64,000 nt of DNA from Alphaproteobacteria bacterium (GCA_017528205.1 JAFXPE010000032.1:225517-289516); one strand, 5' to 3'. Shown: positions 13,347 to 39,306, numbered from the stretch's first letter. The notes: generated from the sequence alone by a model not told the origin. Numbers and translations are program-made.

Positions 13347-13356
13347 ATTCTGATTT

Positions 13357-16393: not shown

Positions 16394-16425
16394 GAGCGTT
16401 CTCCTTTGTCAAAATCTTATTTAAA

Positions 16426-20409: not shown

Positions 20410-20671
20410 ATTAAAATCCTGTTGAATCAATGCAAACCGCCGTTTTTAGGCGACAGTTATCCCACTCTTTTGGTTGAAGATACAACGGATAATGTTAAAA
20501 TACCGTTAATAGGCGGAATAAAGTTGCACAACGCCTAAAAAAACACTTTGCAAAATGCAGCAAATATAATTTTTACGATTTATTTACCAAATTCATATAA
20601 TAATAACGTGTATTTTTATAATGCACATCGTGTGAACCGTCGAATAAATAGGAAAAAACGGACGATTGTTC

Positions 20672-21557: not shown

Positions 21558-21571
21558 GAAGGAGGATGCTG

Positions 21572-21955: not shown

Positions 21956-22036
21956 ACGGAGGCCGTATTAGAAACTAAAAAAAGAGCACGAATATTTTAC
22001 ACAAGCAGAGTTTAAACAGCAAAGAGAAAAGTGGGC

Positions 22037-22480: not shown

Positions 22481-22767
22481 GGGCGGAAATCTTAAAAGCC
22501 GTGGCTCAGCCGCCGAAAGTTTTGTGGGCACCGATGGTTCCGGCAATCATAAATTTGGGCATTCAGTTTCCGATGATGTTTATAGGGATAGGCATTGCCG
22601 ATGCCAACCCGCTGTTTTTTATCGTGTTGATTATAACGGCGCATGTAGCGTTGGTTTTTGCCGGCTTAAAAGAACCGCATTTATCCACCATGCTTCAGGC
22701 TTACGGACAAACCCGTATCATCACCACAAATTTGTACTCGGTCAGAGGGAGTAAATTCGAGCCATGA
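22477..22767 (+). CDS. virB3: VirB3-like inner-membrane protein
   Basis: Length is 96 aa. The sequence ...KVLWAPMVPAIINLGIQFPMMFIGIGIADANPLFFIVLIITAHVALVFAGLKEPHLSTMLQAYGQ... shows the VirB3 topology and the K(D/E)P motif. It lies directly upstream of, and overlaps, virB4. Confidence 0.6.
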   Translation: MRAEILKAVAQPPKVLWAPMVPAIINLGIQFPMMFIGIGIADANPLFFIVLIITAHVALVFAGLKEPHLSTMLQAYGQTRIITTNLYSVRGSKFEP

Positions 22768-25193
22768 ATGAATACGATTTTTTTAACTTGTTTGTGCGCG
22801 GACTGAATAACATAGAGGTTATTGTCGCTCTTATCGGTATTGCGTCGGCGGCTTCTTTTGCGGTTTTGTTGGCCACAAAATTCGGTAACTGGGTGTTGCC
22901 GCAACCGCGCGAATCTCGGGTGTCGGATTTTCTGCCTTTTCAAAAACTGATGTCCGACGGAGTAACAATTCAATGCCGCAACAATTCTTATGCACGCGTT
23001 TTCCGGCTTGAAGGCGTGGATTTATCTTCAGCCACCAATGAAAAAGTATATTCAATGATGGAAGCGCGAAAATCTTGGCTTGACGATATGGCCAATATGC
23101 AGGTAATTTGCCGCGTTATGACCACCCGCGACCATGACACTCTGGAAAGTGAAAAACGCGATTTCAACAATCCGCTTTTGGATACCATTTCGCAAATTTG
23201 GTTCAACAATATGAATCGGGTGTATGACAATAAACACTATATTATATTGTCGGTGGCCGACCGCAAAGATGCCTTAAAAGACCTTAATTATGCGTCACAA
23301 AGTTTGCTTTCAACCTTGGGCGAATATGGCGTCAGTCCGCTTTATGAAACCGATAACAGCAAGCCGGAAGACAGTCCGTTTTATTTGTTTGCGCATTTAT
23401 GCAGCCCGATTTCGCAACCAACGCCGAAAGTGCGTGATACGGAAGGCGCAAGACTTTGTGAATTGCTTACCGGCGACCATATTCACTTTACGCAAGAAGA
23501 AGGAATTATTCACTTCTTTTCCGGCGATAAAGATTTGTATGAAATAGCTTTGGGTATTCGCTCCAGCGGTGAGGCCATGGACGAAAGTATGATTTATTCG
23601 CTGAACGCGATAGATTGCGAATTGGTTTTGTTGCATAACATTCGCCCATTGTTCAGAGCAGAGGCTCGCGCTTTGTTGATGCAACAACAGCGTATGGCCA
23701 TGACCACCAGTTTGTCCGGCGGCGTGGTGGAACAATATTCCGAAGCATTGGCCGCAATCGATGATAGCGACAACGATTATCAATCATTGGCCGAATACGC
23801 TTTAACTATTATCGCCAAGGGACATTCCAAAGAGGAATTGGATTTTGCCGAATCGGAAGTACAACGTATTTGCCGTTCGTTTGGCGTAACTCCGGTGCGC
23901 GAAGGCTGGGTAGCACAGGCCGTGTTCTTTACACAATTCCCGACATATGACACTTATCCGCGGACATACCGCTATTTGTCGCGAGTTATTGCCATGGCCA
24001 TAACCATGGATAAGCCGGCGGAAGGTTTCGGCAAAAGTGACTGGGGCAAGGGCGCAATCACGGTATTCCGTACTATGTCCGGTTCTGCATATCGTTTTCA
24101 ATTCCATGTCAGCAGCGAAGAATCTGCGGTGGCCCACTGTTGCATTGTCGGTCCTACCGGACAAGGTAAAACAACTTTGCTGACGTTTTTGGCCGGACAA
24201 GCGATGCGCCACGGCGATTTGCGCGTGTTCTTCTTTGACCGCCACTTGGGTGCGCAAATATTTACTCGTGCCGTAAAAGGTGCGTATGTCGGCTTTGACG
24301 GCGATGAAAAGAACGTTTCGCTGAACCCGTTTGACTGTGCGAACACCTCGGAAAACAGAGCATTTTTACGGCGGTGGCTGAAGTCGATTACCATGGTTGA
24401 TGACGCTTTGGCCGATCGCGAAGTGGCGCGTGCCGTAACCACGGCATTTGACTACTTGCGACCGGAAGAACGTTTGCTTTCCAACTTATATAAGAGCTGT
24501 TTTTCGCCAACCGGAAATATGCGTCGTGAGCTTTATCGTTGGGTAAATCCGGATCAGTACGGCGCGATTTTTAACGGCCAAGACGATAGTTTGGATTTGA
24601 AGAGCCGTCGCTTTATGGCCTTTGACTTTACGCATATTTTTGAAGATGAAAACCTGGCTCCGGCCGTTATCAGTTACATCATGCACCGTATTCAATCCGA
24701 AACCGGCGAAACCGGCGTTCCGTCGCTGATTATGATTGATGAAACGGCGCCGATGTTGAAGCACCCGATGTTTAGAGATTATTTCATCATCGGTTTGCAA
24801 GAAGGTCGTAAAAAACGTCAGGCTTACCTCTGCGCTTTCCAACAGCCGAATATTGTTGATAAATTGGGCGTCGGCGAGGTTATTCGCGGTCAATGCCAAA
24901 CGGTTATTTTCTTCCGCAACCCGCAAGCCCAACCTGATGACTATGCTAACTGGAATTTGACGCAAAATGAATTGGACTTCATCTTCGGTAAGAGCTATCG
25001 TGATTTTCCGTATGCCATATTGCTGTCGCGTCCGGTGACCGGTGAATCGGTGATTTTGGACGTTGATTTGAGCGGTTTGGGCAAATATCTGCGTATTTAC
25101 AATTCCGGCCGTAAAAACGTGTTGTTGGTACAGCAACTGATAAAAGAATACGGAGAAGACGGTTTCTTAACCAAGTACCTTGATATAGCATAA
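22764..25193 (+). CDS. virB4: VirB4/TrbE/CagE-family T4SS ATPase
   Basis: Length is 809 aa. Walker A is GPTGQGKTT and Walker B is SLIMIDETAP. An N-terminal TM segment is present. Size and organisation are typical of VirB4. Confidence 0.9.
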   Translation: MNEYDFFNLFVRGLNNIEVIVALIGIASAASFAVLLATKFGNWVLPQPRESRVSDFLPFQKLMSDGVTIQCRNNSYARVFRLEGVDLSSATNEKVYSMMEARKSWLDDMANMQVICRVMTTRDHDTLESEKRDFNNPLLDTISQIWFNNMNRVYDNKHYIILSVADRKDALKDLNYASQSLLSTLGEYGVSPLYETDNSKPEDSPFYLFAHLCSPISQPTPKVRDTEGARLCELLTGDHIHFTQEEGIIHFFSGDKDLYEIALGIRSSGEAMDESMIYSLNAIDCELVLLHNIRPLFRAEARALLMQQQRMAMTTSLSGGVVEQYSEALAAIDDSDNDYQSLAEYALTIIAKGHSKEELDFAESEVQRICRSFGVTPVREGWVAQAVFFTQFPTYDTYPRTYRYLSRVIAMAITMDKPAEGFGKSDWGKGAITVFRTMSGSAYRFQFHVSSEESAVAHCCIVGPTGQGKTTLLTFLAGQAMRHGDLRVFFFDRHLGAQIFTRAVKGAYVGFDGDEKNVSLNPFDCANTSENRAFLRRWLKSITMVDDALADREVARAVTTAFDYLRPEERLLSNLYKSCFSPTGNMRRELYRWVNPDQYGAIFNGQDDSLDLKSRRFMAFDFTHIFEDENLAPAVISYIMHRIQSETGETGVPSLIMIDETAPMLKHPMFRDYFIIGLQEGRKKRQAYLCAFQQPNIVDKLGVGEVIRGQCQTVIFFRNPQAQPDDYANWNLTQNELDFIFGKSYRDFPYAILLSRPVTGESVILDVDLSGLGKYLRIYNSGRKNVLLVQQLIKEYGEDGFLTKYLDIA

Positions 25194-25272: not shown

Positions 25273-25959
25273 ATGACGGCGTTGAAAAAAAATCTGAAAT
25301 TCATAGCGGTTTTAGCCCTTATGATAACATTAAATTCCGGCCGCGCGGAAGCATTTATCAACTTTGATATTCAGCGCGTAGGCTCGGCGATTATGAACGG
25401 TTTGCAACAAGGTCTGCAAATCAAAAACGAAATAGACAGCAACATTGCAATGATTAAAGAGGCGCAATCCCGCGGTTACGCTCAGGCGGCGCAAGACTTG
25501 TTCGGCAAAGTCAAAAACGGAGATTTTGACCAATTCGGAGAAAATTTGAAAGGCTTACAAGATAGTGCCTTTGATGCAACGCACAGCGCCCAAGCGGTTG
25601 AGCAACGCAAGGCCAAAGAAGAGGAAGATCGCAAGGCCAAAATGGAAGAAATGCTTAGACAGGAAGAAGAGGCCAGAAAAGCTGCGGAAAGCAGTTCGGA
25701 TGCCGCACATTCCGAGGCCAAAGCCAAGGAACCTTTCTGGAAAAAAACTTTCAATTGGCTGAAAGATAGGCGTTCTGCCGCAGAGACCGGAGCCAATGCC
25801 TTCAACAGCGCCAAAAGCGGTGATGTGGCCGGCGCTTTGCGTAATGCCGGCGGAAGTGTCGGAACTGTGGTCGGCGGAGAAAACGGCCAAGGTATCGGCA
25901 TGCTGGGCAATATGGCAGGCGACGGCACAAATGCCGTTAACAACGGTCTGAGAAATTAA
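25273..25959 (+). CDS. Secreted helical protein in the VirB5 position (VirB5/TraC-like candidate), paralogue A
   Basis: The start is MTALKKNLKFIAVLALMITLNSGRAEAF, with RBS ggagg 7 nt upstream. Length is about 228 aa and the protein is predicted helical. The C-terminal tail is Gly/Asn-rich. Confidence 0.35.
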   Translation: MTALKKNLKFIAVLALMITLNSGRAEAFINFDIQRVGSAIMNGLQQGLQIKNEIDSNIAMIKEAQSRGYAQAAQDLFGKVKNGDFDQFGENLKGLQDSAFDATHSAQAVEQRKAKEEEDRKAKMEEMLRQEEEARKAAESSSDAAHSEAKAKEPFWKKTFNWLKDRRSAAETGANAFNSAKSGDVAGALRNAGGSVGTVVGGENGQGIGMLGNMAGDGTNAVNNGLRN

Positions 25960-26069
25960 TCAATTCGACATCTGGGTAAAAAAGTAAATGTCTGGTCCTA
26001 AACAGATATAAATTTTTGACAACAAAAAAGTGACAAAAAATCCCCAAAATTAAGTACCTTAATGCAATT

Positions 26070-26130
26070 AAAATGTAACAAAAATTTAACACACACCGTG
26101 TAAAAATTATGCTATGGTAAAATTAGCGAG
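26070..26130 (+). promoter_or_regulatory. Second copy of the 26-nt TGTAACA element, plus a -10-like TATGCT / TAAAAT, upstream of paralogue B
   Basis: aaaatgtaacaaaaatttaacacacaccgtgtaaaaattatgctatggtaaaatt. Confidence 0.3.
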
Positions 26131-26159
26131 GAATTGTATGGAGGTTATCATGATGGCTA

Positions 26160-26875
26160 CAAGGAGAAAAATTGGAATTATATCGGTTTTCGCCATTGTG
26201 ATAGCATTGGCGTCCGGTCGGGCAAATGCCTTTCCGCTGGTGTGGAGCGATGTGGAACGCCTCGGAACGGAAGTGCTGAACGGCATACAACAAGTTTCAC
26301 AAATCAAAAACGAAATCGACAGTAATATGGCACTGATTAAAGAAGCACAAGAGCGCGGCTATGCGGCCGCGGCCAACGATTTAATCGGTAAAATTCAAAA
26401 CGGAGATTTTGACCGTTTCGGCAACCAACTGGGCGGTTTGGGCGACACCGCATTTAATGCAACGCACGGTGCAAAAGCGGTAGAGGAACGCAATGCCAAA
26501 AGAGAAGAAGAAGCCAAAAAAGCGGCGGAAAATGCCGCCAACGGCCAAAACAACGAAGTGTTTGGAAAAAAGATATACAATTGGCTGAAAGACAATCGCA
26601 CGACAACGAATGCCGGATTTAACACCTTAAACAATATTCAAAGCGGCGACGTGGCAAATGCGTTGCGCAATGCTACCGGCGGAGCCGAAAGCGCTCTCGG
26701 TGACAATGTTCAAGGCCTTGGAACCATAGGCAGTATGGGCGGTGCCGCAACGGATATTATCAACAGAAGCGGCAATGTCAGCGATGCTGTTGCCAACACG
26801 GCAAATAACAGAGAATTAAAAGGCGCCATCGATTCAATTCCGGCAAAAGATAATTCCGGCGGTGGAACCAACTGA
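26160..26875 (+). CDS. Secreted protein, paralogue B of 25273..25959
   Basis: MMATRRKIGIISVFAIVIALASGRANAF... It is collinear with paralogue A (…LNGIQQVSQIKNEIDSNMALIKEAQERGYAAAANDL.GKIQNGDFD.FG…). The RBS is ggagg. Confidence 0.35.
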
Positions 26876-26923
26876 GAATAACAACAAAACAGGATGCTTA
26901 TAATTTTTAATAGAAAGGAATGT

Positions 26924-28447
26924 GGCATGAGAAGTATCAATAAATTACAAATAATGACATTGGTTTGTCTTATAACATTATTTATAAGCACACCGGCGTT
27001 TTGTGATGCCGGAGCCACATCCTCGTCTGCAAATGACGAAATTCAAACAAAGGTAACGACAAACAAAAACGGCACCGAAACAACGCAAACCTCAAGCGGA
27101 TATTCCACCGGCCAAGTCGGCGGTTCAGGCGGCAGCAGTAAAAGTGCTTCAACTCCGGCAACGACCGGCGGCAGCGGAAGTTCGAGCGGCACCGGCACCA
27201 GCTCCGGTACCGGCACCGGTTCAAGCTCCGATGCAAATTCCGGCTCATCTAATGGCGATAATAAAGATGCTGAGGATGTGAATTATACCGGTGTTTACAA
27301 AGGACATCAGGTTTTGCCGGATTTGATGATGATATACTGCAAGGTGAATGCCGAAGATATTATCGCTGACGTAACCAAGTTGGAAGCCTGCATTAAAAAA
27401 TATGTAACGGCCATTAACAACAGCAACGCCTCGGTTAAGTCGGAAGGTATTCACGACTTTAACACCCTGCGTTATAAAACTTTGGTTGACGTTATGGGTA
27501 CGGCGGTTACCAAACTGGGCAGCGTTGCTGAATTTGAAGAAGATATGAATAAACACGGCGAAGCCGCGGAAAAAATGAAAACAAATTTTGAAACCGAAGG
27601 TGTGCTTATCGCTACTCAGGGATTTTCAACCAAAGTAATGAACAGCATTCGTGAATTATATGCCGATATTTTGAAATATCAGGCCATTGACGGTATGGTA
27701 AACATTGATCCTTCCGCAATTTTGGACGAGGACGAACAGGTAGATGAAAACGGCAATAAGGTTGAAAACGGCGGTAACACCAGCGCCGACCAAACTTCGG
27801 AAAAGGCTCAAACCTCAGCACTTGCCGGCGATAGCGAAGGCGGCGATGAAGAAGTCGGCGGAGATGGTGAAAACGAGGCCATAGACGGTGGCACGTTGCC
27901 GGAAGTGACTGTACCTGGTTCGTCAAAGTTGGATAAATACGAAAATATGTCGCCGGAAGAATTTGCCAATAATAAAGATGAAGTTGCCCAACTCAGAAAA
28001 GATTTGACCGATGCTATGAACGATCCGGATGCTTCGGATACGGAAATTGCCAACGCGCAAAAGGCTTTGGACAGATTGGGAGAAATTGAGGCGCAAAAAG
28101 CCAACTGGGGCGGCGCCGATGAATTTCAGGAGGTTCCAGAAAGCGACAGTCAGAGCAGTAGCCAAGGCGATAGCAATACCCAAAGCAACAGCGAAGACGC
28201 AACGCGCTCACAACATGACAGCGATTTGTCTTCGGCTCAAAATCTTTCGCAAGGCAACTATGTTAACGCGCTGAATGCGTATCGTGGAATTTTGGATAAT
28301 GCTGATTCTACGGAAGAACAGAAGAAACAGGCTCAATATTATATAGATGTGTTAAACGAGGCGGCGCCACAGGTGTTTAAAGATAAATCATGCTCGCAAA
28401 TGAAGCGCGAACTCGGCTTAAGCATCAGTTGCAATGATTGGAAATAG
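26924..28447 (+). CDS. Secreted acidic protein with an N-terminal Ser/Gly/Thr-rich region
   Basis: The signal is MRSINKLQIMTLVCLITLFISTPAFC. It is followed by ...SSGTGTSSGTGTGSSS... and a D/E-rich remainder. Function is unknown. Confidence 0.4.
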   Translation, partial: GMRSINKLQIMTLVCLITLFISTPAFCDAGATSSSANDEIQTKVTTNKNGTETTQTSSGYSTGQVGGSGGSSKSASTPATTGGSGSSSGTGTSSGTGTGSSSDANSGSSNGDNKDAEDVNYTGVYKGHQVLPDLMMIYCKVNAEDIIADVTKLEACIKKYVTAINNSNASVKSEGIHDFNTLRYKTLVDVMGTAVTKLGSVAEFEEDMNKHGEAAEKMKTNFETEGVLIATQGFSTKVMNSIRELYADILKYQAIDGMVNIDPSAILDEDEQVDENGNKVENGGNTSADQTSEKAQTSALAGDSEGGDEEVGGDGENEAIDGGTLPEVTVPGSSKLDKYENMSPEEFANNKDEVAQLRKDLTDAMNDPDASDTEIANAQKALDRLGEIEAQKANWGGADEFQEVPESDSQSSSQGDSNTQSNSEDATRSQHDSDLSSAQNLSQGNYVNALNAYRGILDNADSTEEQKKQAQYYIDVLNEAAPQVFKDKSCSQMKRELGLSISCNDWK

Positions 28448-28492
28448 CGGAAAAACGGAGAGGATGAAAACGAAAAGGATAGGAGAAGCAAT

Positions 28493-30040
28493 ATGAAGAA
28501 AAAGATAGCGACATTGTTGGTTGCCTTGCTGGTTTTGTTTCCTAAAACCTCTCGTGCCGATTTGGATGTTCTTTCCATTTTTCAGGATGTCTTAAAAACT
28601 TTCCAAGAAAAAATGAATACGGTGGTGCACACCTATCTCGGATATCAAATCAACTTGCAGGAATTGGCCTTAAACGGAAATATTGTGGAACAATTGAAAG
28701 CGCAAGTTAAAAACGAGCTTAACGCCCGTAGCGCCGCATTTTTGGGAGATTTGAAAAATCAGGCCGGCAGTGCGTTTAACGAGTTTTTGAATACCAGACT
28801 GAGCAATGTTTCTCTGCCGGGAATTGCGTCGGGCGTAAACCTGGGTGAATACGTTTCTCCGCAATTAAAGCAACAGATCGGATTGACTTATTTCAAGCGC
28901 CAGAACGTACAAAACGATGTTCAGGTCACGGTGGCCACAGACTTAAAGAACAACAATCTTTTGGTTGAAAATTTGGCCATAATTTTTGCCAACGGCTTGG
29001 TTAATCGTAAAAAACTCATGGACGAAGCCGCAAGCATCAAAGAAGAAGATGATAAACAAGAAAAAGAAGATAAAGAATCCAATCCGGATGTTAACACGGT
29101 AAAATGGCGCTATGGTGAGGCCTTGCGACGGGCAAACCATCGCTGGCTTGAAATTATGGGCTTTGAAGCGGCCTATCGTAAGACACTCAGCGAAATGTTG
29201 ATGACCGGCGGTCGTATTGATGACATTTCCGAAATTATCAGCGAAGATGAGCAAAAGGCTATGGAAAATATGGCGAACAACCCAAACCAACAGGGTAATC
29301 CGCTCAATACCAACAATCCGCTCGGCGGCATTAATCCGGCTGATCTCGGAAATATCGGCAAAAATATTTTGAATGACATCAAAAACGGCAATTATTCCAA
29401 TGCGTTCAACAATGCCGCTGGCCTGTATTCCAATTCAGCCGGAAGCAGAGAGGGTGTGAACAATGTTCTAGGTCAGGTATCCACAGGTTTGGGCTCGGCT
29501 CAAAATGCGTATAACAGCGCCGCATCCGGTAATATCGGCGGAGCCGTCGGAGCCGCGGCCGGAGGTGCCGGAACGCTGAGCGGAAGTGAAGCGGTTGCGG
29601 GAGCTGCGGGTGGTGCCGGTAGTGCCTTGAATTCTGCCTTGTCGGGAGATTGGAATAAGGCCATTTCCGGCGGTGCGGCAACAGCCGGAGGAGCCGTGGG
29701 CGGAACCACCGGAAACGAAGTCGGCGCTTTGGGCAGTATTGCCGGCGGAGCCGCGGGAGTAGCCACACAGGGCGGTAATTTGGAACAGATTATCGGCAAC
29801 ACCGCCAACAATAGCGGAATCAGAAACGGAATAAATGCTTTAGGCAACGGCAACCAAAATGCCGGACAAGGTTCTGCTCAGGGAAGTGGCAATGATGCCT
29901 CGGCAAACAGCAACGGCAGTTCGACCGGAGGCACCTCAACCGGCACTAATTCAACCGGACAAAGCGGAACTGATGCAACGGGTTCAGCCGGATCTTCAAA
30001 TCGCCACAGCAGTCCGGCCAGCGGAACGGAGGATAAGTAA
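28493..30040 (+). CDS. Secreted protein with a long Gly/Ala/Asn/Ser low-complexity C-terminus
   Basis: The signal is MKKKIATLLVALLVLFPKTSRA, with RBS aggag upstream. The C-terminal roughly 230 aa are G/A/N/S/T low-complexity. Confidence 0.4.
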   Translation: MKKKIATLLVALLVLFPKTSRADLDVLSIFQDVLKTFQEKMNTVVHTYLGYQINLQELALNGNIVEQLKAQVKNELNARSAAFLGDLKNQAGSAFNEFLNTRLSNVSLPGIASGVNLGEYVSPQLKQQIGLTYFKRQNVQNDVQVTVATDLKNNNLLVENLAIIFANGLVNRKKLMDEAASIKEEDDKQEKEDKESNPDVNTVKWRYGEALRRANHRWLEIMGFEAAYRKTLSEMLMTGGRIDDISEIISEDEQKAMENMANNPNQQGNPLNTNNPLGGINPADLGNIGKNILNDIKNGNYSNAFNNAAGLYSNSAGSREGVNNVLGQVSTGLGSAQNAYNSAASGNIGGAVGAAAGGAGTLSGSEAVAGAAGGAGSALNSALSGDWNKAISGGAATAGGAVGGTTGNEVGALGSIAGGAAGVATQGGNLEQIIGNTANNSGIRNGINALGNGNQNAGQGSAQGSGNDASANSNGSSTGGTSTGTNSTGQSGTDATGSAGSSNRHSSPASGTEDK

Positions 30041-30041
30041 G

Positions 30042-31316
30042 ATGAAAAAATGGGTTAAAAAAATAGGAATTTCCGCTGTTTGTCTGATGTTGGCGCAAAC
30101 CGTTTGCGTGATGCCGGCACATGCCTTTATCAAACTTGATTTCACCGGTCCGGTGGCTGATATTTTGGATAAAATTAAGCAAGAAAAAATCAAATATGAA
30201 GAATGGTACAAGAGCCAGCTGGAAAAGTTAAATCAAAAAGTGTTAAAAGCTTTCGGAGCCGAGGGTGCGGAGTTGTTCAAAAGCGTTACCAGCAACGCCA
30301 CTTCTATTGTTACCAGCGCGGCCAAAGGCCAATTTAATGCCGGTGACTTTACCGCCAAAGGTTTTATGAGCGCGATGGGAGCTCAACTCGGAAATTATAA
30401 GCTGGATTACGCCAATATCTTAAATCAAATGCAAGACTACGTCAACGCTCAAGAACGCGCAAAACTGGATAAGAAAGCGGCGATGGAAACCGAATTGCTT
30501 AAGCTTTCGTCACAAAGAGCCGCGCTGAACGATTTGATTGCGCAAAATCCGGACGATCCGGGCAATGCCGACCGCTTAAAACAAATGGACGAGTTGGATA
30601 AGGCAATGGCCGACTTGCAAAAGCAAATCAAGGATAATGACGAGCAACAGGTTGCCGATGACGAAAACACCAAGAGTTTGGAAAACAAAATGAAAAGTTT
30701 GCAAGACCAAATCAGCAACATTACGGCGCAAACTTCGCAGGATAACCTGATGAAATCTTTGCAACTTGAAACCTCAAAGCTTTTCGGACACGGTACCGCC
30801 GCGGCGCAAGAAGAAGACAATAAAGAATTATACGAAACAGCATTAAGCAAGCTGTTCTTGGCCGAAGATGAGGCTGAAAATACGCAGAATGTGGCGCGAA
30901 TTATGAAGATTCGCAAAAAAGAATATTATGATGCGCTGAAAAATTCTTTGGAAACCGTTATTACCACTTATGGCAGTATTGAGGAAATATCTGAGCGTAG
31001 CAAAGCTTGCGGCGAAGCCTCTACCAAAATGGCCAACGGCGTGTTCGGTGCATCGGCAATGCGCATTTGCACCGAGTTGCAAAACACCAAAATAGCGGCT
31101 CGATACATGGAAATTCTGTTGGCTCTGATTCGTTATGAAACAACGTCTGAAATGCAAATCTGGACCAACAAATATAAATTGAAAGATTATGAAAAAGATG
31201 TAACCAAGTTCAATTTGGACGATTACATTTTGAAAAAAGAAAGTATGCTTAAAAAAGGCAAAAACAAATTAAATCAAGCAATTGATAACAAATTAAACAG
31301 CTTAACTGGTATGTAG
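30042..31316 (+). CDS. Secreted coiled-coil protein
   Basis: The true start MKKWVKKIGISAVCLMLAQTVCVMPAHA (a signal peptide) lies just after the stop of the previous gene. The listed ORF 29859.. carries a spurious N-terminal extension that overlaps the previous gene. Confidence 0.4.
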   Translation: MKKWVKKIGISAVCLMLAQTVCVMPAHAFIKLDFTGPVADILDKIKQEKIKYEEWYKSQLEKLNQKVLKAFGAEGAELFKSVTSNATSIVTSAAKGQFNAGDFTAKGFMSAMGAQLGNYKLDYANILNQMQDYVNAQERAKLDKKAAMETELLKLSSQRAALNDLIAQNPDDPGNADRLKQMDELDKAMADLQKQIKDNDEQQVADDENTKSLENKMKSLQDQISNITAQTSQDNLMKSLQLETSKLFGHGTAAAQEEDNKELYETALSKLFLAEDEAENTQNVARIMKIRKKEYYDALKNSLETVITTYGSIEEISERSKACGEASTKMANGVFGASAMRICTELQNTKIAARYMEILLALIRYETTSEMQIWTNKYKLKDYEKDVTKFNLDDYILKKESMLKKGKNKLNQAIDNKLNSLTGM

Positions 31317-31325
31317 GAGGGTGTC

Positions 31326-34300
31326 ATGAAAAAGATAATATATTCCATAGCGGTGTTTTTAACCAGTATCGGTATAACGCGTAATGCATACGCGATGTGG
31401 CCGGATCTCACGCCACTAATTCCGCTTGCACCGCAATTTTGCGCAATGTGCACGCCTTCGGCTGTTATGACGGCGCTTTCCTATGCACAACAGGTAAAAG
31501 CCATTAAAGACGACTTGACCAAGTTTACGGATATGTCGCAATTAAAACAGATGGCGACATCGTACCTTCCGAAAATGGGCGCAACGGCCTTAAACGCTGC
31601 TCGGAAAAAGCCTGCAGCCAAGAAAAAGGTAATTTCTTTTTCGCGCACCATAGAAGAATGTACGGTTGCCGACATTAAAGATCCGAATTCGGTTAAAGAT
31701 GCCTTTATTAAGCTGTTTATGCAATACCCTTCCAAAAAGAACAGCGTGAAAGCCGCTTATGCCGAAATGGGCGAGCAGCTCAAAATGGATACCACGTTAG
31801 AGATGTTTATTACCGCCAAAGAAATGGAAAAAGAGTTGCTGGGCAAAGAGCCGGGCAAAGACATTAAACCTACGGCACAGAATTTGGCTGATTTGGGCAT
31901 CTTAAAGCAAATAGATTTGATTGAAAGTTGCTTGGTAGAAGGCAAAAATTGTGATGTTATCGGCTTGGATGCCTGTGTTGAAAGCAAAAAAGGCAGCAAG
32001 TCTGAAGAAGGCCAAGAAAATGACGAAGATAACGTTTGCTATTGGAACAGCGCTTTGCAGGCAGAAAAGTTTTATGATGCGGTGATGCGTTATAATGAAT
32101 TTTTGGTTTCGATGCATGCGCAATATCAGGCAGTTTTGGGTATCGAAAAATTGGCTAAAATTCGCGAAAAAGGCGATACCGAAAACGATGGCAGCAGCAA
32201 CAATAATAACAACAGTTCGTCGTTACAGATTGTTCCGCAAACTCAAGACTATGCTTCCGGTATAATTTTTGCCGATATGGCTTTTGCCGATATGACTGAC
32301 GCCGATAAACAGGCCGAAGATGATTTGCGCGATTATAACAATGCCTTGTCGACGCATGAAAATGTGTTGGGCGGCGAATTTGAAGAAACCGGCGAAGCTG
32401 CGGGCTATGAAAGCCCTCTGGATGGCAGAGAAGACGATTTGGAAAGCGCTGCCTTATTGGCTGAAGTTCAAGACGACTTAAACAAGGCGATGCGAGTACA
32501 TAATTTGAAGCAATTACTTCCGGATTATCGTCGTGTTTACAAAGATTATAATACTGCCAAAAAGCAACATGAATTGGCTTTGGAAAACGTAGCCATTTCC
32601 GGAGAGTGCATTACCCGTATGCTGGAGCCGTATTATTCCAATGCGGCGGTTGCATGGCACGGAAACGACTGCCGATATTTGGAAAAAGGCAAATTGATTT
32701 GTCACTACAAGCCGGAGCAGACTTTTGATGAGAACAATGCGGAAAATGAAGGCGATTTGAATACGGCATGTCCGGGAGATGAGGGCCATAAATGTTACAT
32801 CATCTCGCTGGATGAGGCGCAAACCAAGGCTAAAGGTATTTCCGGTTATTTGACGACATTGTACGCCAAGGCCAAGGATATGGAAGCGACTGCTGACACG
32901 GATTCGTACATCAACGCTCAAACCGAAGAAGGCAGAGCAGATGCCAATGTTGCGCGCACAACCATTACTTCGGACTTTAATCAGGAAGAAGGCGAAGACA
33001 TTTATGTTGCCGACCGTGACCAAGATGAAAAAGACAACGGCGATAGTCAACTCGGACTTTTGCATCAGGCTGTTTCGCAGGAAGACGGTCATGCCGACGA
33101 TGAATCTTCGGCACACCTTAAAAATCAGCGTCAGGGCGATGAAGAAAAAGAAAATGCTCGCAAAGACGGCATCTTGCGTTGGGTTCTCGGTTCGTTGGCC
33201 GCCAAAGAAGTGGCAATCGACCTGGGTACCGGAGCCGACAATTTCGGCAACCGCAAGGGTAATTTCCCGCTGTGGACGGATCAGAAAATATTTTACGATC
33301 AATACATTGACGGCAAATACGATAACATCAAGGAATATATCGAAACCCTGCCGGTGTCGGAAATTGTGTTGAATATGGCTGGAACTTTCAACGAAATCTA
33401 TCCTTATCAGGATAAGATTAAAAACGGTGTGGTAGTTAAAACTGCCGAGGAGTTACGTACCAAAAACGGCAAAGATATCGCCAAAGCCCAAAATGCTTCA
33501 AAGCCGTTGGGTTCTGACGAAGATGCTTTGATTGAGGCCAAATTGGCGGAAGAAGATGCTTTATTTGCCAATATTACCAATAAATACAACAACGATATTG
33601 CCGCTATCAAAGCGCAAATAGAGCGCAAATACGATGAGCTTGACAGGAATAACGCCGCTTTGGATGAAAAGAATCAAAAGTATAATGAAAACAATTCGGT
33701 GATTAAGGCTGCCGACGCAACCTCTGCTGAAGCCAATGCCGCGGTTGAATATGGCGACAGCTTGTATGCCGACCGCGAATTGACCGAAGATGCACCGCAA
33801 AATACCAAAGATCAGTCCGATCCGGAAGTTATCGGCTTTAAGACCAAAGACAATCGCAATGATGCCGAAAAATCCGAGGCCGTAACCAAAAAGGCCGAAG
33901 CGGCAGATACGGCGGCGGAAGAAGCAAGAGCAAAAGCTTTGGACGAAGAGATAAAAGAACTCAAAAAACAAATAGAAGCCAGACGCATCCAATATGTTAA
34001 AGATTTGAGTGATGCAGAAATTGCCGCGCACGAATCCTTTAAAACATTTTCTGAAGAATTGAAGGCCGCGCGCGTTATCAACAACTCTATCAGCAACAGC
34101 TTAACCGCGATATCTCCGGTGGGGTTGGCGGCACAAGTTGCCGAGTGTGTTCGCACTTATGCAATCAAAGAGGTTGCAGAGGCCAAATCTAAGCTTGATG
34201 CAATGAAAAATAATGGCGAGCTTTACAGTCGGGAATATGCCGAAAAAGTCCACACCATTCACACGGATATGATTGATAAAATCACCGAGATTGATTTGGA

Positions 34301-35807
34301 TGAATTGGCTGAAAGCTGCCCGGTTATTGCCCAATTGCAAGAAATGGCAAAGACTTTCCAAGATAAACAACTGGAAGAAAATCCAAATCAAGAGCCGAGC
34401 GATCCGCTGGATGTGATTACCGAGATTTTGAATATTTTGAACAAAACCTGCGATGATGTGGAATGCAAAGAATCCGACAATGAATATTTTGTGGGTGCAA
34501 TCGGCTTGCCTCGTGATATGAAGGCTCCGAACCAAGCCACGGAATTTGCCTCGATTCCGCTGCGTGAAATCTTCCACTTTGATGTGTATGATTACAACAA
34601 TTTGGCGAAATATTACGACGGCGACATCAACGATGTTAAGAGCAATTTGGATTTATATACCAGCGCGGTTAACGTTTTGGAATACTTAAACAGCGATGCT
34701 CGCAACGGCGAATACGGTTCAACCGTTCCGGAAATCTGGCTCAAGATTTTACAACGCCATGCGTTTGTACAAAAGGAGTTTGATTTGGTTGACTTGCTGA
34801 GCGGTACGGAAGATATCACCAACAGCACTCGCAAAGCGCTGTCACGTTCCGGCGTGTTCCCGTGCCGTGTAGGTTCGCACATTGTAGATGTTTCGCTCGA
34901 TTTGGATTATATGGTTGATGATACCAAAGATGCAAACAAATACTATGACCTTCCGACTTGCCAAGGTTTGATAATCAAAGAGGTGGACGGTAAGCGTGTG
35001 GTATTTGATGAAGAAGTCGGCGGCGGCAACTTGAACCTCGATCCTCCGGGATTTACCGGCAACGTTGTTCGCGCCAGCGAGCTCGGCAACATTTTAGCCT
35101 ATACGCCGGACAAAGACGCGTTAATCAAAGCTAAGTTGCAGAATCCGGGATTGACCATGGAAGATGTTAACGCTTTGCCGCACAGATTGACCTTTAATGC
35201 CAATTTGATGCGCGCGGTCAAGACTATTGTCGAAACCGAAGATGTGGGCAAAGAAGGACACGAGGCTGAAGATTCACTGTTCTATCTGGCCAGCCGCGTA
35301 ATGTTGGAACGCAACCAGTTCGGTGATTATTTGGATCAGCTCGAAAATGAATCCATTAAAGCCGATGAGTTGCAAAAATTTGAAAAGCAAATTTACGACA
35401 TTCGCACCAGCCTTTTGGAAGTGTTTGCGGATACCGGTTTTGAATTGGGTGAAGATTTCGACTTAACCGATGAAGAGGACTACGCTCAGGCTGAAAGTAC
35501 CTTGAACAGCCAAAAAGATATTTATGTGAACCAATCCATAAATAAACTGGGACAAGTCAAGGGAACTACGCAAATGGTGGCGGATAAACTCAGCAAATTG
35601 CTGACCAAAATAAGCATCCTCAGCTTAGACAGCGATGAAGTTGTGGCCATTACCGGTGAAGAAACCGAAAGCGAGCTAAGAGAAAAAATTGACGAGAGCA
35701 AGGCCAACAACGCGGTGGGTGAGGAATATACCAAAGAAAAAGAAAAAGAAACCGAGCGTCGCTTAGAGCGCTATCGTCGCCCATATTGCGCGGTTTATCC
35801 TAAATAA
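31326..35807 (+). CDS. Giant (1493 aa) secreted, highly acidic protein
   Basis: The signal is MKKIIYSIAVFLTSIGITRNAYA. It is hydrophilic and D/E-rich throughout, with coiled-coil stretches and several Cys pairs. No TM segments were seen, so it is not a VirB6 homologue. Confidence 0.45.
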   Translation: MKKIIYSIAVFLTSIGITRNAYAMWPDLTPLIPLAPQFCAMCTPSAVMTALSYAQQVKAIKDDLTKFTDMSQLKQMATSYLPKMGATALNAARKKPAAKKKVISFSRTIEECTVADIKDPNSVKDAFIKLFMQYPSKKNSVKAAYAEMGEQLKMDTTLEMFITAKEMEKELLGKEPGKDIKPTAQNLADLGILKQIDLIESCLVEGKNCDVIGLDACVESKKGSKSEEGQENDEDNVCYWNSALQAEKFYDAVMRYNEFLVSMHAQYQAVLGIEKLAKIREKGDTENDGSSNNNNNSSSLQIVPQTQDYASGIIFADMAFADMTDADKQAEDDLRDYNNALSTHENVLGGEFEETGEAAGYESPLDGREDDLESAALLAEVQDDLNKAMRVHNLKQLLPDYRRVYKDYNTAKKQHELALENVAISGECITRMLEPYYSNAAVAWHGNDCRYLEKGKLICHYKPEQTFDENNAENEGDLNTACPGDEGHKCYIISLDEAQTKAKGISGYLTTLYAKAKDMEATADTDSYINAQTEEGRADANVARTTITSDFNQEEGEDIYVADRDQDEKDNGDSQLGLLHQAVSQEDGHADDESSAHLKNQRQGDEEKENARKDGILRWVLGSLAAKEVAIDLGTGADNFGNRKGNFPLWTDQKIFYDQYIDGKYDNIKEYIETLPVSEIVLNMAGTFNEIYPYQDKIKNGVVVKTAEELRTKNGKDIAKAQNASKPLGSDEDALIEAKLAEEDALFANITNKYNNDIAAIKAQIERKYDELDRNNAALDEKNQKYNENNSVIKAADATSAEANAAVEYGDSLYADRELTEDAPQNTKDQSDPEVIGFKTKDNRNDAEKSEAVTKKAEAADTAAEEARAKALDEEIKELKKQIEARRIQYVKDLSDAEIAAHESFKTFSEELKAARVINNSISNSLTAISPVGLAAQVAECVRTYAIKEVAEAKSKLDAMKNNGELYSREYAEKVHTIHTDMIDKITEIDLDELAESCPVIAQLQEMAKTFQDKQLEENPNQEPSDPLDVITEILNILNKTCDDVECKESDNEYFVGAIGLPRDMKAPNQATEFASIPLREIFHFDVYDYNNLAKYYDGDINDVKSNLDLYTSAVNVLEYLNSDARNGEYGSTVPEIWLKILQRHAFVQKEFDLVDLLSGTEDITNSTRKALSRSGVFPCRVGSHIVDVSLDLDYMVDDTKDANKYYDLPTCQGLIIKEVDGKRVVFDEEVGGGNLNLDPPGFTGNVVRASELGNILAYTPDKDALIKAKLQNPGLTMEDVNALPHRLTFNANLMRAVKTIVETEDVGKEGHEAEDSLFYLASRVMLERNQFGDYLDQLENESIKADELQKFEKQIYDIRTSLLEVFADTGFELGEDFDLTDEEDYAQAESTLNSQKDIYVNQSINKLGQVKGTTQMVADKLSKLLTKISILSLDSDEVVAITGEETESELREKIDESKANNAVGEEYTKEKEKETERRLERYRRPYCAVYPK

Positions 35808-35821
35808 GTAGAGAGGTTATT

Positions 35822-36574
35822 GTGGCACAGTTAGGCGATGGAACAAAAAAGATATTGTTAGCGGGACAATCACCGGTAAAACAGGCAGCATATCAGCCTC
35901 ATTTTATCAGCGACGCCAAACAAGATAGCTATTCGGGCAAGGAAGTTTATTTCCGTTGGCTTTCGAGGTTGGTTGTGTTATGTGCGATTGTTTCGCTGAC
36001 ATTCTTTTTGTGTTCGACTATGGTTATCTTCCGCTTGGCTCCGGAGATTGTGGTTGAACCGCTTTTAATTATCAATCAGAGTGATTCCGAAAGCATGGCG
36101 CGTTATGAGCCGATAACTGAGCGTATGCCGTCACTTCGCCAGTTGACCGAAATGTTTATCAAACAATATATAATCATGCGCAACACGGTCATCAATGACG
36201 CTCAGGAAATGCGCACCCGCTGGGGACCGGGCGGCATTGTTCATTATATGTCGGCTCCGGATGTTTATGCTGATTTTGTGGGACAAAATTCGCAATCGAT
36301 AAATAAAATGTTTGACAATGATTATTCCAGCGAAACGCGCATAGACGAGATTGGCAAAGAAAGTGAAACCACACCGGCGTGGACGGTTAAATTTACGGTG
36401 TTCAACCTGTCAAAAAAACGCAGTTCTGAGGGTTCGCTGACCTTAAAAACCAAGCGCTACAAGGTTTCCATAACACCGCGTTTTTATCAACAAAGAAGAA
36501 TATTCCGGCCGCGTTTGATAAATCCGCTGGGGTTTACGGTGGTTAAATATAACCAGAGCGAAATAAGTGAATAG
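35822..36574 (+). CDS. virB8: VirB8-like bitopic T4SS protein, copy 1
   Basis: It begins with a GTG start. It has a cytoplasmic N-terminus, a single TM (LSRLVVLCAIVSLTFFLCSTMVIF) and a periplasmic NTF2-like domain ending ...RPRLINPLGFTVVKYNQ, matching the conserved VirB8 NP(L/F)GF.V..Y motif. Confidence 0.6.
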   Translation: MAQLGDGTKKILLAGQSPVKQAAYQPHFISDAKQDSYSGKEVYFRWLSRLVVLCAIVSLTFFLCSTMVIFRLAPEIVVEPLLIINQSDSESMARYEPITERMPSLRQLTEMFIKQYIIMRNTVINDAQEMRTRWGPGGIVHYMSAPDVYADFVGQNSQSINKMFDNDYSSETRIDEIGKESETTPAWTVKFTVFNLSKKRSSEGSLTLKTKRYKVSITPRFYQQRRIFRPRLINPLGFTVVKYNQSEISE

Positions 36575-36722: not shown

Positions 36723-36911
36723 ATGTATAAAAAATTTCTAATTCTGGCGATATTGCTGATTTTATCGGCTTGCAGTCTGTTCGGTTCGTATTATGAACCG
36801 GAAGCGGTCGGTATCGGTAAAGACGTGAATGAGCTTAAGCTTTCGCCGTGTGCTTGCATGCAGGTTGAAGTGATTAAAAATGTTCCCGATTGGTTTTGGG
36901 AAACAATTTAA
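36723..36911 (+). CDS. Small lipoprotein (VirB7-like candidate)
   Basis: Length is 62 aa. The signal peptide MYKKFLILAILLILSAC has a lipobox LSAC. The RBS is aagagag. Confidence 0.45.
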   Translation: MYKKFLILAILLILSACSLFGSYYEPEAVGIGKDVNELKLSPCACMQVEVIKNVPDWFWETI

Positions 36912-36927: not shown

Positions 36928-37674
36928 ATGGCGGATCAGTTAGGTACAAACAACACACAGCAACGTCTTCTCGCCTCGGGGCAAAAGCGTCAGGCGGTGC
37001 ACGCTGCCACCACGCATAACATAAATCGCAGTGAAGACAGCTTTGTTGTTAATGCCAGCGAAAAGAGATATTTGTGGACCGCCCGCGCGTTTGCGGTGGT
37101 TACGGCGATAAGCATCTGTTGCAATTTGGTGTTGATATTGACAATTGCCAACATTTTGCCTCTGTATCGTGTGGAGCCGTATTTGCTGACCTTGTCCAAC
37201 AAAGAAGAGCAAGTGTATCGCATTGAACCGTACAGCCGTGATATGGAAGCCAAAAAGTCTATTACGGAAACCTTTATTCGCCAGTATTTGCTTTTAAGAA
37301 CAACCTTGTTGCCGGATATCGAAGAGATGGAATCGCGCTGGCAAGAAGGCGGCGATTTGCAAGAAATGTCTTCACCGATGGTGTATCAGGACTTTATCAA
37401 GAACACCGGCGTAAAGTTGATGCAACGCATGAAACAAGACGGCTTAACCAGCAATGTGAAGATAATTACGGTAAACGAAATAGAAGAAGCGGTTTGGCAG
37501 GTGGAATATAGTGTTGATTATTATTTACCGTCATCATATGAGCCGAAAACGCTCAGATACAGAGCAAGTATGCGAATTCAATATATTCAGCAACGTGTTC
37601 AATTTAAAGAAAGATTGAAAAATCCGGTCGGATTTAAGGTTGTTTCATACAACGTCAAACAAATAAAAGACTAA
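36928..37674 (+). CDS. virB8: VirB8-like bitopic T4SS protein, copy 2
   Basis: It is collinear with copy 1 (FIRQYLLLRTTLLPDIEEMESRWQEGGDLQEMSSPMVYQDFI versus FIKQYIIMRNTVINDAQEMRTRWGPGGIVHYMSAPDVYADFV). The C-terminus reads ...NPVGFKVVSYNVKQ. Confidence 0.6.
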   Translation: MADQLGTNNTQQRLLASGQKRQAVHAATTHNINRSEDSFVVNASEKRYLWTARAFAVVTAISICCNLVLILTIANILPLYRVEPYLLTLSNKEEQVYRIEPYSRDMEAKKSITETFIRQYLLLRTTLLPDIEEMESRWQEGGDLQEMSSPMVYQDFIKNTGVKLMQRMKQDGLTSNVKIITVNEIEEAVWQVEYSVDYYLPSSYEPKTLRYRASMRIQYIQQRVQFKERLKNPVGFKVVSYNVKQIKD

Positions 37675-37689: not shown

Positions 37690-39306
37690 ATGAGAATGAG
37701 CATAAAAAAACTGATGTTAATAATGGTCGGAATGTTGTTGTCCGGCAATGCTTTTGCAGACTTAACAACAGGTGAAACCGCCGCATTGGATCAATCGGCG
37801 GACCAATCTCAGGGAAATTATCAGCCGATGAATTTAGGCTATGCCGGTTTCAACTCGCTCGGCATGATTCAAGAAGCGTGGCAAGATCCTTTGCAAAACT
37901 TGGGCGAAGGGCAGTCCAAGCCGGCTTATTCCAAATACTATTGGACACCGGATTTGGTTTTGCCGGTTCGGGTGCGCGAAGGTATGATTACCATGATTAA
38001 TTTTCCGGAATGGGAACTGATTGAGCGAGTTCAGGTCGGTGATTCCCGTTCTTTCTCAGGTTCGGTACAACAACCTAACACGGTTTTGCTTTATCCGGCT
38101 CCGCAAGCCGCAGTTGGTGTAGATTCCAACGTGGTGGTTTTCGGACGTTCCGGCAACAAATATGTCTTTTATGTCAGAAGCGAAGGCGTGAACACCGAAA
38201 GATTGACCAATGCCATTATTGATATTGATGTAGTCGGCGACAACGGCTCATCGGGAGGTAGTCCCAGGGGCCGCGTGGGGACGGTAGGCGGTGTCGGCGC
38301 TTCAGGCAATTTGAATGGGGGTAACAATACTCTTTATTCATCGTATACTCAGCGCTTTTTGAAAGAAGATTGGTTGAAGAGTATTCCGCTGGATCCGAGC
38401 AAGTTTCGCTTTGATATTGAAATTTATGTGCCTAATCCGGACGATGTGATTATTGCGCCGGAACGTGTTTGGCATGATGATATCTTTACTTATATAGATT
38501 TGGGCGAAAAGGCCTTAAATATGGTTCAACGCCCGATTGTTACGCTGATTATCGAACGTTCGGAAACGCCGGTCGGCTTCAGAACCAAAGGCCCGAACAA
38601 CAGACTTATCATTGTTGAGGGCATCGGTGATATGGTAATGCGTAGCGGCAAACGTATGGTGTGCTTAAAGATGCGTCGTTCCGATGATGAGGGAATGCAG
38701 TATGTTACTTATGCCGATACCAGCAACGAATGGGATGTCGGACCGGCAATTCCTGGCGGTGCCAACGGTAACGGTGCCGGCGGAGTCGGTGCATACGGCG
38801 CCGGAGCAGCAGGTGGTGCGGCCGGTGCGCCGATTCCGGACGGAAACGGCGGAGTTTATGTGCCGAACGGTGCCAGCGCCATGATGGGCGGTGCCGGAGC
38901 TATGGGCGGCGTGGTCGGTAATTCTATGGGCGGATACGCCGGAAATATCGATTGCAGCGGTATGTCTCCTTTAAGCAGCGCCGGTGCAAATATGGCCAAT
39001 CCGTATCCGAAATATAAGTACGGCAGCGGTTTTGAAGGTCAAACCGACGACCATATATCCATAGAACTCGGAACCGACGGCAACGTGAATAATTTGGAAG
39101 CGCTGTGGAAAGATTTATCCGGTCGTTATTCTTCGATTTTGGGCGAATACGAACCATTCTATTCCGTTGATGCTCCGGCAGACGGACAAGGCAAAGAACT
39201 GTTCCATTTGCGGGTAGGCCCGATAAAGAACTTGAATACGGGAGATTCCGTATGCAGCAAGTTGGGGCGCAACGGAGTGTTCTGCAGCGTGGTGAGGATG
39301 CAATAA
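37690..39306 (+). CDS. virB9: VirB9/CagX-like outer-membrane core protein carrying Gly-rich insertions and a C-terminal extension
   Basis: It has a signal peptide. The N-terminal domain reads ...VLLYPAPQ...NKYVFYVRSEG, which is VirB9-like. The C-terminal domain reads ...DDIFTYIDLGEKALNMVQRPIVTLIIERSE...RLIIVEGIGDMVMRSGKRMVCLK. A roughly 150-aa G/A/N-rich region follows, and the terminal ...LFHLRVGPIKNLNTGDSVCSKLGRNGVFCSVVRM is SPOR-like. At 538 aa it is about twice the canonical VirB9 length. Confidence 0.6.
   Translation: MRMSIKKLMLIMVGMLLSGNAFADLTTGETAALDQSADQSQGNYQPMNLGYAGFNSLGMIQEAWQDPLQNLGEGQSKPAYSKYYWTPDLVLPVRVREGMITMINFPEWELIERVQVGDSRSFSGSVQQPNTVLLYPAPQAAVGVDSNVVVFGRSGNKYVFYVRSEGVNTERLTNAIIDIDVVGDNGSSGGSPRGRVGTVGGVGASGNLNGGNNTLYSSYTQRFLKEDWLKSIPLDPSKFRFDIEIYVPNPDDVIIAPERVWHDDIFTYIDLGEKALNMVQRPIVTLIIERSETPVGFRTKGPNNRLIIVEGIGDMVMRSGKRMVCLKMRRSDDEGMQYVTYADTSNEWDVGPAIPGGANGNGAGGVGAYGAGAAGGAAGAPIPDGNGGVYVPNGASAMMGGAGAMGGVVGNSMGGYAGNIDCSGMSPLSSAGANMANPYPKYKYGSGFEGQTDDHISIELGTDGNVNNLEALWKDLSGRYSSILGEYEPFYSVDAPADGQGKELFHLRVGPIKNLNTGDSVCSKLGRNGVFCSVVRMQ

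Follow-up and report, generated by a model that had tools for sequence, protein, structure and literature searches.

In a VirB-type type IV secretion system (T4SS), the slot between virB4 and virB8 normally holds the part that contacts the target cell (VirB5) and the anchor of the stalk (VirB6). The locus described here raises the question of what the machine looks like when this slot is filled by orphan proteins. The window, i.e., the whole stretch of 64,000 nucleotides (nt) that was analyzed (Alphaproteobacteria bacterium, GCA_017528205.1, JAFXPE010000032.1:225517-289516), is chromosomal, comes from an uncultured alphaproteobacterium, and carries a single VirB-type T4SS gene string on the + strand at ca. 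20.7 to 49.1 kb. Within it, six consecutive genes that we call g1 to g6 (25273-35807) take the place of virB5 and virB6. We regard it as an evenly balanced proposition that they encode lineage-specific subunits that are exported by Sec and make up the distal or surface portion of a VirB T4SS of uncultured gut and rumen Alphaproteobacteria, a system that is chromosomal, inherited vertically, and similar in layout to the rvh system of Rickettsia. What is new is a VirB/rvh-type T4SS with an orphan, lineage-specific module in the VirB5/VirB6 slot. The original prediction, made from the sequence of the window, had described the six genes and missed the four families into which they fall, the fusion of g1 and g3 in related genomes, the VirB7 gene, and the rvh-like gene order.

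Six exported proteins between virB4 and virB8

The six genes are as follows (lengths in amino acids, aa).

25273-25959, + strand: g1, 228 aa, signal peptide; helical N-terminal part and G/A/N-rich tail; first gene after virB4
26150-26875, + strand: g2, 241 aa, signal peptide; tandem paralogue of g1
26927-28447, + strand: g3, 506 aa, acidic, signal peptide; S/G/T-rich at aa ~60-120, core at aa ~128-290, acidic C-terminal extension
28493-30040, + strand: g4, 515 aa, signal peptide; helical N-domain (aa 1-~250) and a 255-aa G/A/N/S tail
30042-31316, + strand: g5, 424 aa, signal peptide; all-helical, coiled-coil
31326-35807, + strand: g6, 1493 aa, acidic, signal peptide; conserved cysteines; long antiparallel helices and globular alpha/beta parts

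The block is flanked by virB3/virB4 and virB8/virB9, as identified by Pfam. Open reading frames (ORFs), gaps, and ribosome-binding sites agree with the earlier description of six tightly spaced genes on the same strand, each with its own ribosome-binding site and signal peptide. The gaps upstream of g1 to g6 measure 79, 190, 51, 45, 1, and 9 nt, another 14 nt separate g6 from virB8a, and a GGAGG-like site stands 6 to 9 nt before every start codon. The same six genes are recovered in two further assemblies by independent gene calling, and among the lengths given before only that of g3 had to be corrected (506 aa from the ORF rather than 507). The products of g1 and g2 are 45% identical (E 3e-60), and the 25 nt preceding the two genes are almost identical, a mark of tandem duplication; with g1 directly after virB4, the pair is rightly described as paralogues at the VirB5 position. 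Promoter-like sites within the string are near chance (39 found versus 29.7 +/- 6.2 expected), and no intergenic terminator-like site on the + strand stands out in it, such sites being near chance level as well.

All six proteins start with a basic and hydrophobic segment ending in A-x-A, i.e., a Sec-type signal peptide, and none has an internal transmembrane segment. The acidity noted before for g6 was confirmed (19% D+E versus 12% K+R). This protein has invariant or near-invariant cysteines and the g3 core has two conserved ones (C22 and C39 of its alignment), which fit an oxidizing compartment. Altogether, the slot encodes ca. 3,400 residues of protein without known relatives. The exact matches in NCBI are the proteins MBR3676724-36 of a metagenome-assembled genome (MAG), annotated as hypothetical for all but VirB9 and VirB10. 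Scans of g1 to g6 against Pfam and NCBIfam gave nothing above noise, and a Pfam scan of 109 members of the g1 to g4 families gave only coiled-coil noise. Homologues of g1 formed only 7 clusters among 5.8 billion proteins, and those of g5 formed 42, none with a Pfam domain. For g6, a word search retrieved 42 clusters and an exhaustive HMMER scan of 1.84 billion representatives retrieved 209 at 50% identity, mostly of 1200-1900 aa apart from short fragments, the size range of the g6 family. Sequence-profile searches of the PDB with g6, g5, the g3 core, and the N-domain of g4 together with its free-standing relative Y (see below) returned no T4SS protein, and neither these nor the Pfam and NCBIfam scans revealed a domain of a toxin, an enzyme, or a lectin.

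Every homologue found sits at the same place within the same T4SS operon, and none was present in another context among the 1.84 billion cluster representatives, as judged by lengths and architecture. This makes it very improbable that the six only happen to be located in the operon, either as unrelated secreted proteins of envelope or housekeeping function or as components of a neighboring type IVb pilus. Such a reading could draw on the lack of a match to any T4SS family and on the type IVb pilus cluster lying 0.4 kb upstream on the opposite strand; however, the pilus genes are divergently transcribed. Confident homology to unrelated housekeeping secreted proteins, which the original prediction had singled out as counting against it, was found neither in Pfam and NCBIfam nor, for g3 to g6, in the PDB.

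Conservation, families, and selection

Using a profile of g6, we found relatives at 74 loci in a collection with one genome per species. Their record titles refer to uncultured gut or rumen Alphaproteobacteria or to unclassified proteobacteria (for example “Azospirillum sp. 51_20,” “Proteobacteria bacterium CAG:495,” and “Candidatus Scatocola faecigallinarum”), except for two bins titled Bacteroidaceae bacterium, and the hosts are human, ruminants, horse, mouse, and chicken. We take these MAGs to belong to the GTDB order RF32, and we found nothing in the literature on this T4SS in the RF32 gut lineage. All counts of synteny, copy number, and slot content refer to the 64 of the 74 loci that hold both the virB4 and the virB8 ends. 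All 64 show the order virB2s-virB3-virB4-[4 to 7 ORFs]-virB8a-virB8b-virB9-virB10, so that a conserved neighborhood was indeed found for the slot between virB4 and virB8. VirB4 is 69-96% identical to that of the window across the loci, for which reason the system has the look of a core trait of the lineage and not of a mobile element, while g6 is 21-41% identical and g1 to g4 are often undetectable by BLAST.

Both g5 and g6 are single copy in each of the 64 loci, and g3-like and g4-like proteins occur in all of them. In some rumen genomes the g1/g2 family consists of two sister groups. In a distant clade (far clade), the g1-like and g3-like parts, split in the window, align to a single fused protein of 500-900 aa. 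This is the first gene after virB4 there, X, larger than g1 (228 aa) and g2 (241 aa) and ranging from 367 to 920 aa. The g3 core matches the C-terminal domain of X (hhalign 99%), and the g1/g2 family matches its N-terminal ~110 aa (hhalign 95% with signal peptides and 82% without). Likewise, the N-domain of g4 corresponds to a free-standing far-clade protein of ~220 aa, Y (hhalign 99.3%, or 98.5% without signal peptides). By these profile comparisons the six genes reduce to four conserved families, namely, g1/g2 with the g3 core, the g4 N-domain, g5, and g6. Some apparent links among them were discarded. An N-terminal kinship of g4, g5, g6, and g1/g2 (hhalign 59-93%) was gone after trimming of the signal peptides and was an artefact of these, and a BLAST match between aa 183-257 of g3 and aa 296-371 of g5 (E 0.004) fell to 0.9% at the profile level.

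The original prediction saw in the low-complexity tails a property shared by several of these proteins. Against a background of 30.5%, the content of G, A, N, and S reaches 60-82% at aa ~260-515 of g4, 60-70% at aa 340-440 of VirB9, 55-60% in the tails of g1/g2, and 70% at aa 60-120 of g3. The biased stretches are thus real in g1/g2, g4, and VirB9, except that the one in VirB9 is internal and not a tail. With the VirB9 domain on one side and a weak SPOR-like C terminus on the other, this stretch fits the flexible linker that had been suggested. As a shared and conserved property, the tails did not hold: g4 orthologues have tails of anything between 0 and 304 aa, of the 33 Y proteins of the far clade 27 have none, and the tails tie g1/g2 to g4 by composition only. 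An origin from DNA tandem repeats was rejected, with just short, weak repeats in g3 and g4, and a single-linkage cluster uniting g1 to g4 was produced by the tails and by weak bridges. In one far-clade locus (L037, 2304-3386, + strand) the third VirB2 paralogue is lengthened to 360 aa by a G/S/T-rich tail; low-complexity appendages thus recur on different T4SS parts in different clades.

Ratios of nonsynonymous to synonymous substitution rates (dN/dS; Nei-Gojobori) were calculated between the window and two related strains (L085 and L086). They were 0.10-0.14 for g1, 0.09-0.15 for g2, 0.14-0.155 for g3, 0.11-0.15 for g4, 0.075 for g5, and 0.06-0.10 for g6, versus 0.012 for VirB4, 0.013-0.024 for VirB8b, 0.047 for VirB3, 0.05 for VirB9, and 0.06 for VirB8a. 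Values of 0.06-0.155 indicate that each of the six is a genuine, functional gene on which purifying selection acts, relaxed with respect to the core, since they are roughly 2 to 12 times less constrained than VirB4 or VirB8b (5 to 12 times the dN/dS of VirB4). For g6, the single copy in 64/64 loci together with a dN/dS close to those of VirB8a and VirB9 favors an obligate part of the machine over a variable effector.

Possible descent from VirB5 and the absence of VirB6 from the slot

The nearest VirB4 proteins on sequenced plasmids are 30-38% identical and come from Microvirga, Sphingosinicella, Erythrobacter, and “Candidatus Paracaedimonas.” In ten plasmid systems (these and six further ones), the gene after virB4 encodes a signal-peptide protein of 224-301 aa, which matches the VirB5 family PF07996 in 6 of the 10. 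Their mature N termini (GIPVIDPTAI, QVPVLDSNVF, QIPTIDPSLI, GMAVFDATNF, and similar) share with far-clade X (GLPTFDAANI, GLPTVDAGNI, QWPTVDIASI) the motif hydrophobic-P-T/V-x-D-x-x-x-I/L, and members of the g1/g2 family mostly start with FPLPTADIKRI or FPLPTMDMGRL. Position, size, export, and motif point to a VirB5 descent of the module formed by g1/g2 and g3 (equal to X), which may derive from VirB5 on the strength of position and motif and not of homology. PF07996 matched none of g1 to g6 at E<=1 and none of the 109 g1 to g4 family members at E<=0.01, and the PDB profile searches found no TraC, TrwJ, or CagL. Aligned to the ten plasmid VirB5 proteins with signal peptides kept, X scored 93%, Y 85%, and g1/g2 52% (hhalign). 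After their removal the values were 32% (N part) and 23% (collinear C part) for X, 26% for Y over its full length, 35% for the C-terminal region of g5, and 0.5% for g1/g2. Of the VirB5 likeness first ascribed to g1 and g2, then, the position, the signal peptide, and the size stand; the motif is clear in most of their family and degenerate in g1 and g2 themselves, and a match to the VirB5 family at the domain or trimmed-profile level does not stand.

The slot is equally distinct with regard to VirB6. Internal hydrophobic segments are absent from 308 of its 312 ORFs in the 64 loci and number at most two in the other four, while the same method sees four to six segments in the VirB6 proteins of Paracaedimonas and Nitrosospira plasmids. 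Neither a Pfam match to VirB6/TrbL (PF04610) nor a polytopic protein was found among g1 to g6, in agreement with the predicted occupation of the VirB5/VirB6 slot by six genes without a VirB6-like one. The called genes of the window plus 10 kb on each side (~84 kb) include no recorded member of the TrbL/VirB6 or VirD4 families, and the flanks beyond the window ends carry housekeeping genes such as gyrB, uvrA, lptC, and tyrS. The only multispanning protein near the operon is a DUF3137 membrane protein with four hydrophobic segments directly after virB11 (49001-50212, + strand, the longest ORF, overlapping the end of virB11), and Pfam does not make it VirB6-like. The Microvirga, Erythrobacter, and Sphingosinicella plasmid operons are also without a canonical polytopic VirB6 and have in its slot a non-membrane VirB5 paralogue of ~420-450 aa (hhalign 96.8%; L075 23932-25218, L076 17348-18709, and L077 10379-11647). 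This ~430-aa protein was tried as a relative of g5 or g6 and showed no detectable relation by hhalign. The Microvirga plasmid also has in the VirB6 slot a 228-aa protein with three hydrophobic segments.

Structure models were examined for g6 and g5. The AlphaFold2 model of g6 (aa 294-1493) is good (predicted local distance difference test, pLDDT, 79; predicted template modeling score, pTM, 0.71) and combines small subdomains that contain beta structure, helices 58-83 residues long, an alpha/beta region at the C terminus, and more long helices. Foldseek found no match to this model at E<=0.001; the top, non-significant ones were coiled-coil proteins of the SMC/MukB type, and PrgA was among the matches at a non-significant E of 0.7. 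For g5, PDB sequence and Foldseek searches gave only coiled-coil noise, the poor model depriving the Foldseek matches of weight. The structural comparison with the Cag outer-membrane core that the original prediction had proposed came out negative, the models of g5 and g6 matching no solved T4SS component; among the Cag proteins, CagL, Cag3, CagM, and CagT, which the PDB libraries are expected to hold, showed no fold similarity to either.

These results bear on whether g5 and g6, perhaps with g3 and g4, build a scaffold or stalk that spans the periplasm or forms a ring, replacing or adding to the VirB5/VirB6 stalk in the manner of the extra core components of Cag. The universal, single-copy g5 and g6 are about as constrained as VirB8a and VirB9, the slot of the 64 loci holds no polytopic protein, and the g6 model has helices of 60-80 residues. 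The machine is also enlarged in other parts, with a VirB10 of 1395 aa and a bitopic beta-flower protein of 1523 aa, and the sphingomonad and Microvirga plasmids provide a precedent for a nontransmembrane protein in the VirB6 slot. Nevertheless, we find such a scaffold rather unlikely, since neither g5 nor g6 matches in structure Cag3, CagM, CagT, or another T4SS core component that has been solved, a soluble protein is unable to do what VirB6 does in the inner membrane, and the faster evolution of g1 to g4 suits exposure better than a buried position; besides, the tools used do not tell periplasm from surface. Somewhat less probable still is a more far-reaching proposal, in which the four orphan families would jointly replace the VirB5/VirB6 stalk and tip in a truly VirB6-less, rvh-like, lineage-core T4SS, with g6 as a new coiled-coil fiber or periplasm-spanning scaffold contacting host or neighbor cells.

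The six could also be cargo. The subunits of pertussis toxin have signal peptides and share an operon with ptl; the Ptl system is without VirB5 and VirD4. By analogy, Sec would export all six proteins, or some of them, as subunits of a complex that the T4SS then secretes, a two-step route that does without a coupling protein. The signal peptides on all six, the conserved cysteines, the absence of a called VirD4 within ~84 kb, and the acidic, fast-evolving nature of the proteins are in line with this. However, the genes are interleaved between virB4 and virB8 instead of standing at the end of the operon, and the succession of the four families stays the same in 64 loci taken from various hosts, which is not what effector repertoires typically show. 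A coiled-coil protein of 1493 aa is an unlikely periplasmic passenger through a T4SS channel, and the first gene retains a VirB5-like motif. On balance, we consider a cargo role unlikely.

Under the reading that we prefer, that of distal, surface-associated subunits, g1 to g6 would be exported by Sec and their signal peptides cleaved, after which the conserved cysteines would form disulfides in the periplasm. Together with the three VirB2 pilins and the core of VirB7/8/9/10, the exported proteins would go on to build the distal part of the machine, either the tip and base of a pilus or a surface appendage that touches target cells, with a putative function in adhesion or contact. The module of g1/g2 and g3 (X) would take the role of VirB5, and the G/A/N/S tails would act as disordered spacers of variable length.

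Several observations weigh against this reading. No significant sequence or fold tie (the latter for g5 and g6) of the six to VirB5, CagL, Cag3/CagM, or other T4SS parts was found, and the VirB5 profile scores of 85-93% are largely driven by signal peptides, dropping to 23-35% when these are removed. The g1 and g2 of the window itself have only degenerate forms of the motif (FINFDIQRV and FPLVWSDVERL). A canonical VirB6 may be encoded elsewhere in the genome, in which case the slot might not be functionally “replaced.” The all-helical model of g5 is unreliable (pLDDT 61, pTM 0.31), and dN/dS values well below 1 give, at the whole-gene level, no sign of diversifying selection.

The case is of interest because at least 74 loci of a species-representative set of uncultured Alphaproteobacteria share this operon down to the individual genes. 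Identifying g1 to g6 would tell what this gut lineage does with its T4SS, be it adhesion, effector delivery, or killing of or mating with neighbors, and the interest would rise sharply if complete genomes prove to be VirB6-less.

Operon context and comparison with known systems

The remaining genes of the T4SS string, with g1 to g6 between virB4 and virB8a, are listed here in order.

20763-21116, 21213-21557, and 21566-21955, + strand: three VirB2/TrbC pilin paralogues (Pfam PF04956, E 1e-5 to 2e-10)
22031-22480, + strand: 149-aa signal-peptide protein of unassigned family, between the third virB2 and virB3
22477-22767, + strand: virB3 (Pfam PF05101)
22764-25193, + strand: virB4 (Pfam PF03135; TIGR00929, E 5e-114), directly 5' of g1
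35822-36574, + strand: virB8a (Pfam PF04335)
36723-36911, + strand: ORF for a VirB7-like lipoprotein of 62 aa (lipobox LSAC, motif KLSPCAC)
36928-37674, + strand: virB8b (Pfam PF04335)
37690-39306, + strand: virB9, G/A/N-rich in an internal stretch and weakly SPOR-like at its end
39310-43881, + strand: bitopic beta-flower repeat protein of 1523 aa (PF21785/PF21784)
43884-48071, + strand: virB10, 1395 aa, of which the first ~1000 (to ~46900) are beta-flower repeats
48082-49056, + strand: virB11, a context gene at the end of the T4SS string

The 149-aa protein is kept in the near clade only, at 27-51% identity. The VirB7-like ORF was not in the gene list and was independently called as a gene in the related locus L085; its S/T-P-C-A-C motif (SPCAC or TPCAC) also occurs in small lipoproteins before virB8 in the Microvirga and Erythrobacter plasmids. 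VirB9 matches the CagX family of Pfam (PF03524), and the best NCBIfam match of VirB10 is ComB10. The C terminus of VirB9 has a weak match to a SPOR domain (PF05036, E 0.0055, below the curated cut-off), a hint of peptidoglycan binding. The beta-flower fold was described only in 2023 and has no assigned function, and in the gene of the beta-flower protein there are DNA tandem repeats with a period of 156/315 at 40600-41910. Upstream of the T4SS and divergent from it (10505-18763, - strand) lies the type IVb pilus cluster, with a TcpQ-like protein, secretin, PilO, T2SSE ATPase, and T2SSF platform. Two acidic proteins without an assigned family lie at 13357-15201 and 18805-20430, and the sign of the GC skew flips at ~20 kb, between the pilus cluster and the T4SS. 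An ankyrin-repeat protein of 367 aa (3224-4327, - strand; Pfam Ank_4 on the called gene) is encoded at a distance of ~17 kb from the T4SS; proteins with ankyrin repeats commonly serve host-associated Alphaproteobacteria as T4SS effectors.

Compared with the VirB5/TraC/TrwJ/TrbJ family (PF07996), g1/g2 and X are alike in being first after virB4 and in having a Sec signal peptide, a helical N-terminal part, and, in the family, the N-terminal motif. They differ in the G/A/N tails and in that the module is split into two genes here or, in the far clade, interrupted by an acidic or low-complexity insertion of 200-400 aa. F-type TraN, TraU, TraH, and TraW and the Gram-positive PrgA and PrgB act in pilus assembly, mating-pair stabilization, or adhesion. 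They too are Sec-exported accessory proteins in a T4SS operon, some of them Cys-rich or coiled-coil stalks; however, no homology to g1 to g6 was detected. The Helicobacter Cag system (CagL/I/H, Cag3, CagM, CagT, and CagY) likewise adds to a VirB-like core a set of exported proteins specific to its lineage and a VirB10 lengthened by repeats, although here the repeats are beta-flower domains and not CagY repeats, and g5 and g6 have no sequence or fold similarity to its components.

The nearest functional precedent for the preferred reading is Bartonella Trw, in which TrwL (VirB2) and TrwJ (VirB5), parts of a surface pilus, have been amplified and outpace the core in their diversification; there is no coupling protein, and the system serves adhesion (PMC2883598). 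The window resembles it in the three VirB2 copies, in the duplicated g1/g2 at the VirB5 position that diverge faster than the core, and in that no VirD4 is called within ~84 kb. Unlike the window, Trw keeps a recognizable TrwJ, TrwI (VirB6), and TrwH, and its copies are recent tandem repeats, while here we find orphan families that include a giant of 1493 aa and for which a role in adhesion would be an inference.

The closest layout is that of Rickettsia rvh, in which islet A is virB3-virB4-[five VirB6 paralogues] and islet C holds the order virB8a-virB7-virB8b-virB9-virB10-virB11 plus virB9a and virD4; a [KI]KSP motif next to the second Cys has been reported for Rickettsia VirB7 and ComB7 (PMC2653234). 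The order in the window equals islets A and C joined, with a tandem array after virB3-virB4, no recognizable VirB5, a duplicated virB8, and a VirB7 lipoprotein with a K-x-SP-C motif, in a system that is chromosomal and vertically inherited. The layout is therefore rvh-like in gene order, a likeness read from the order of the genes alone, phylogeny aside. In contrast, the rvh array consists of five polytopic VirB6 paralogues and that of the window of six nonmembrane secreted proteins. There is here one operon instead of an archipelago, with one virB4 and one virB9 and no virB9a, virB4b, or virD4 nearby, and VirB10 carries beta-flower repeats. The system would give a third example, after Cag and rvh, of a VirB scaffold that has been rebuilt, and its rvh-like layout with a soluble array would provide a free-living or gut comparator for rvh, which is hard to study in obligate intracellular bacteria.

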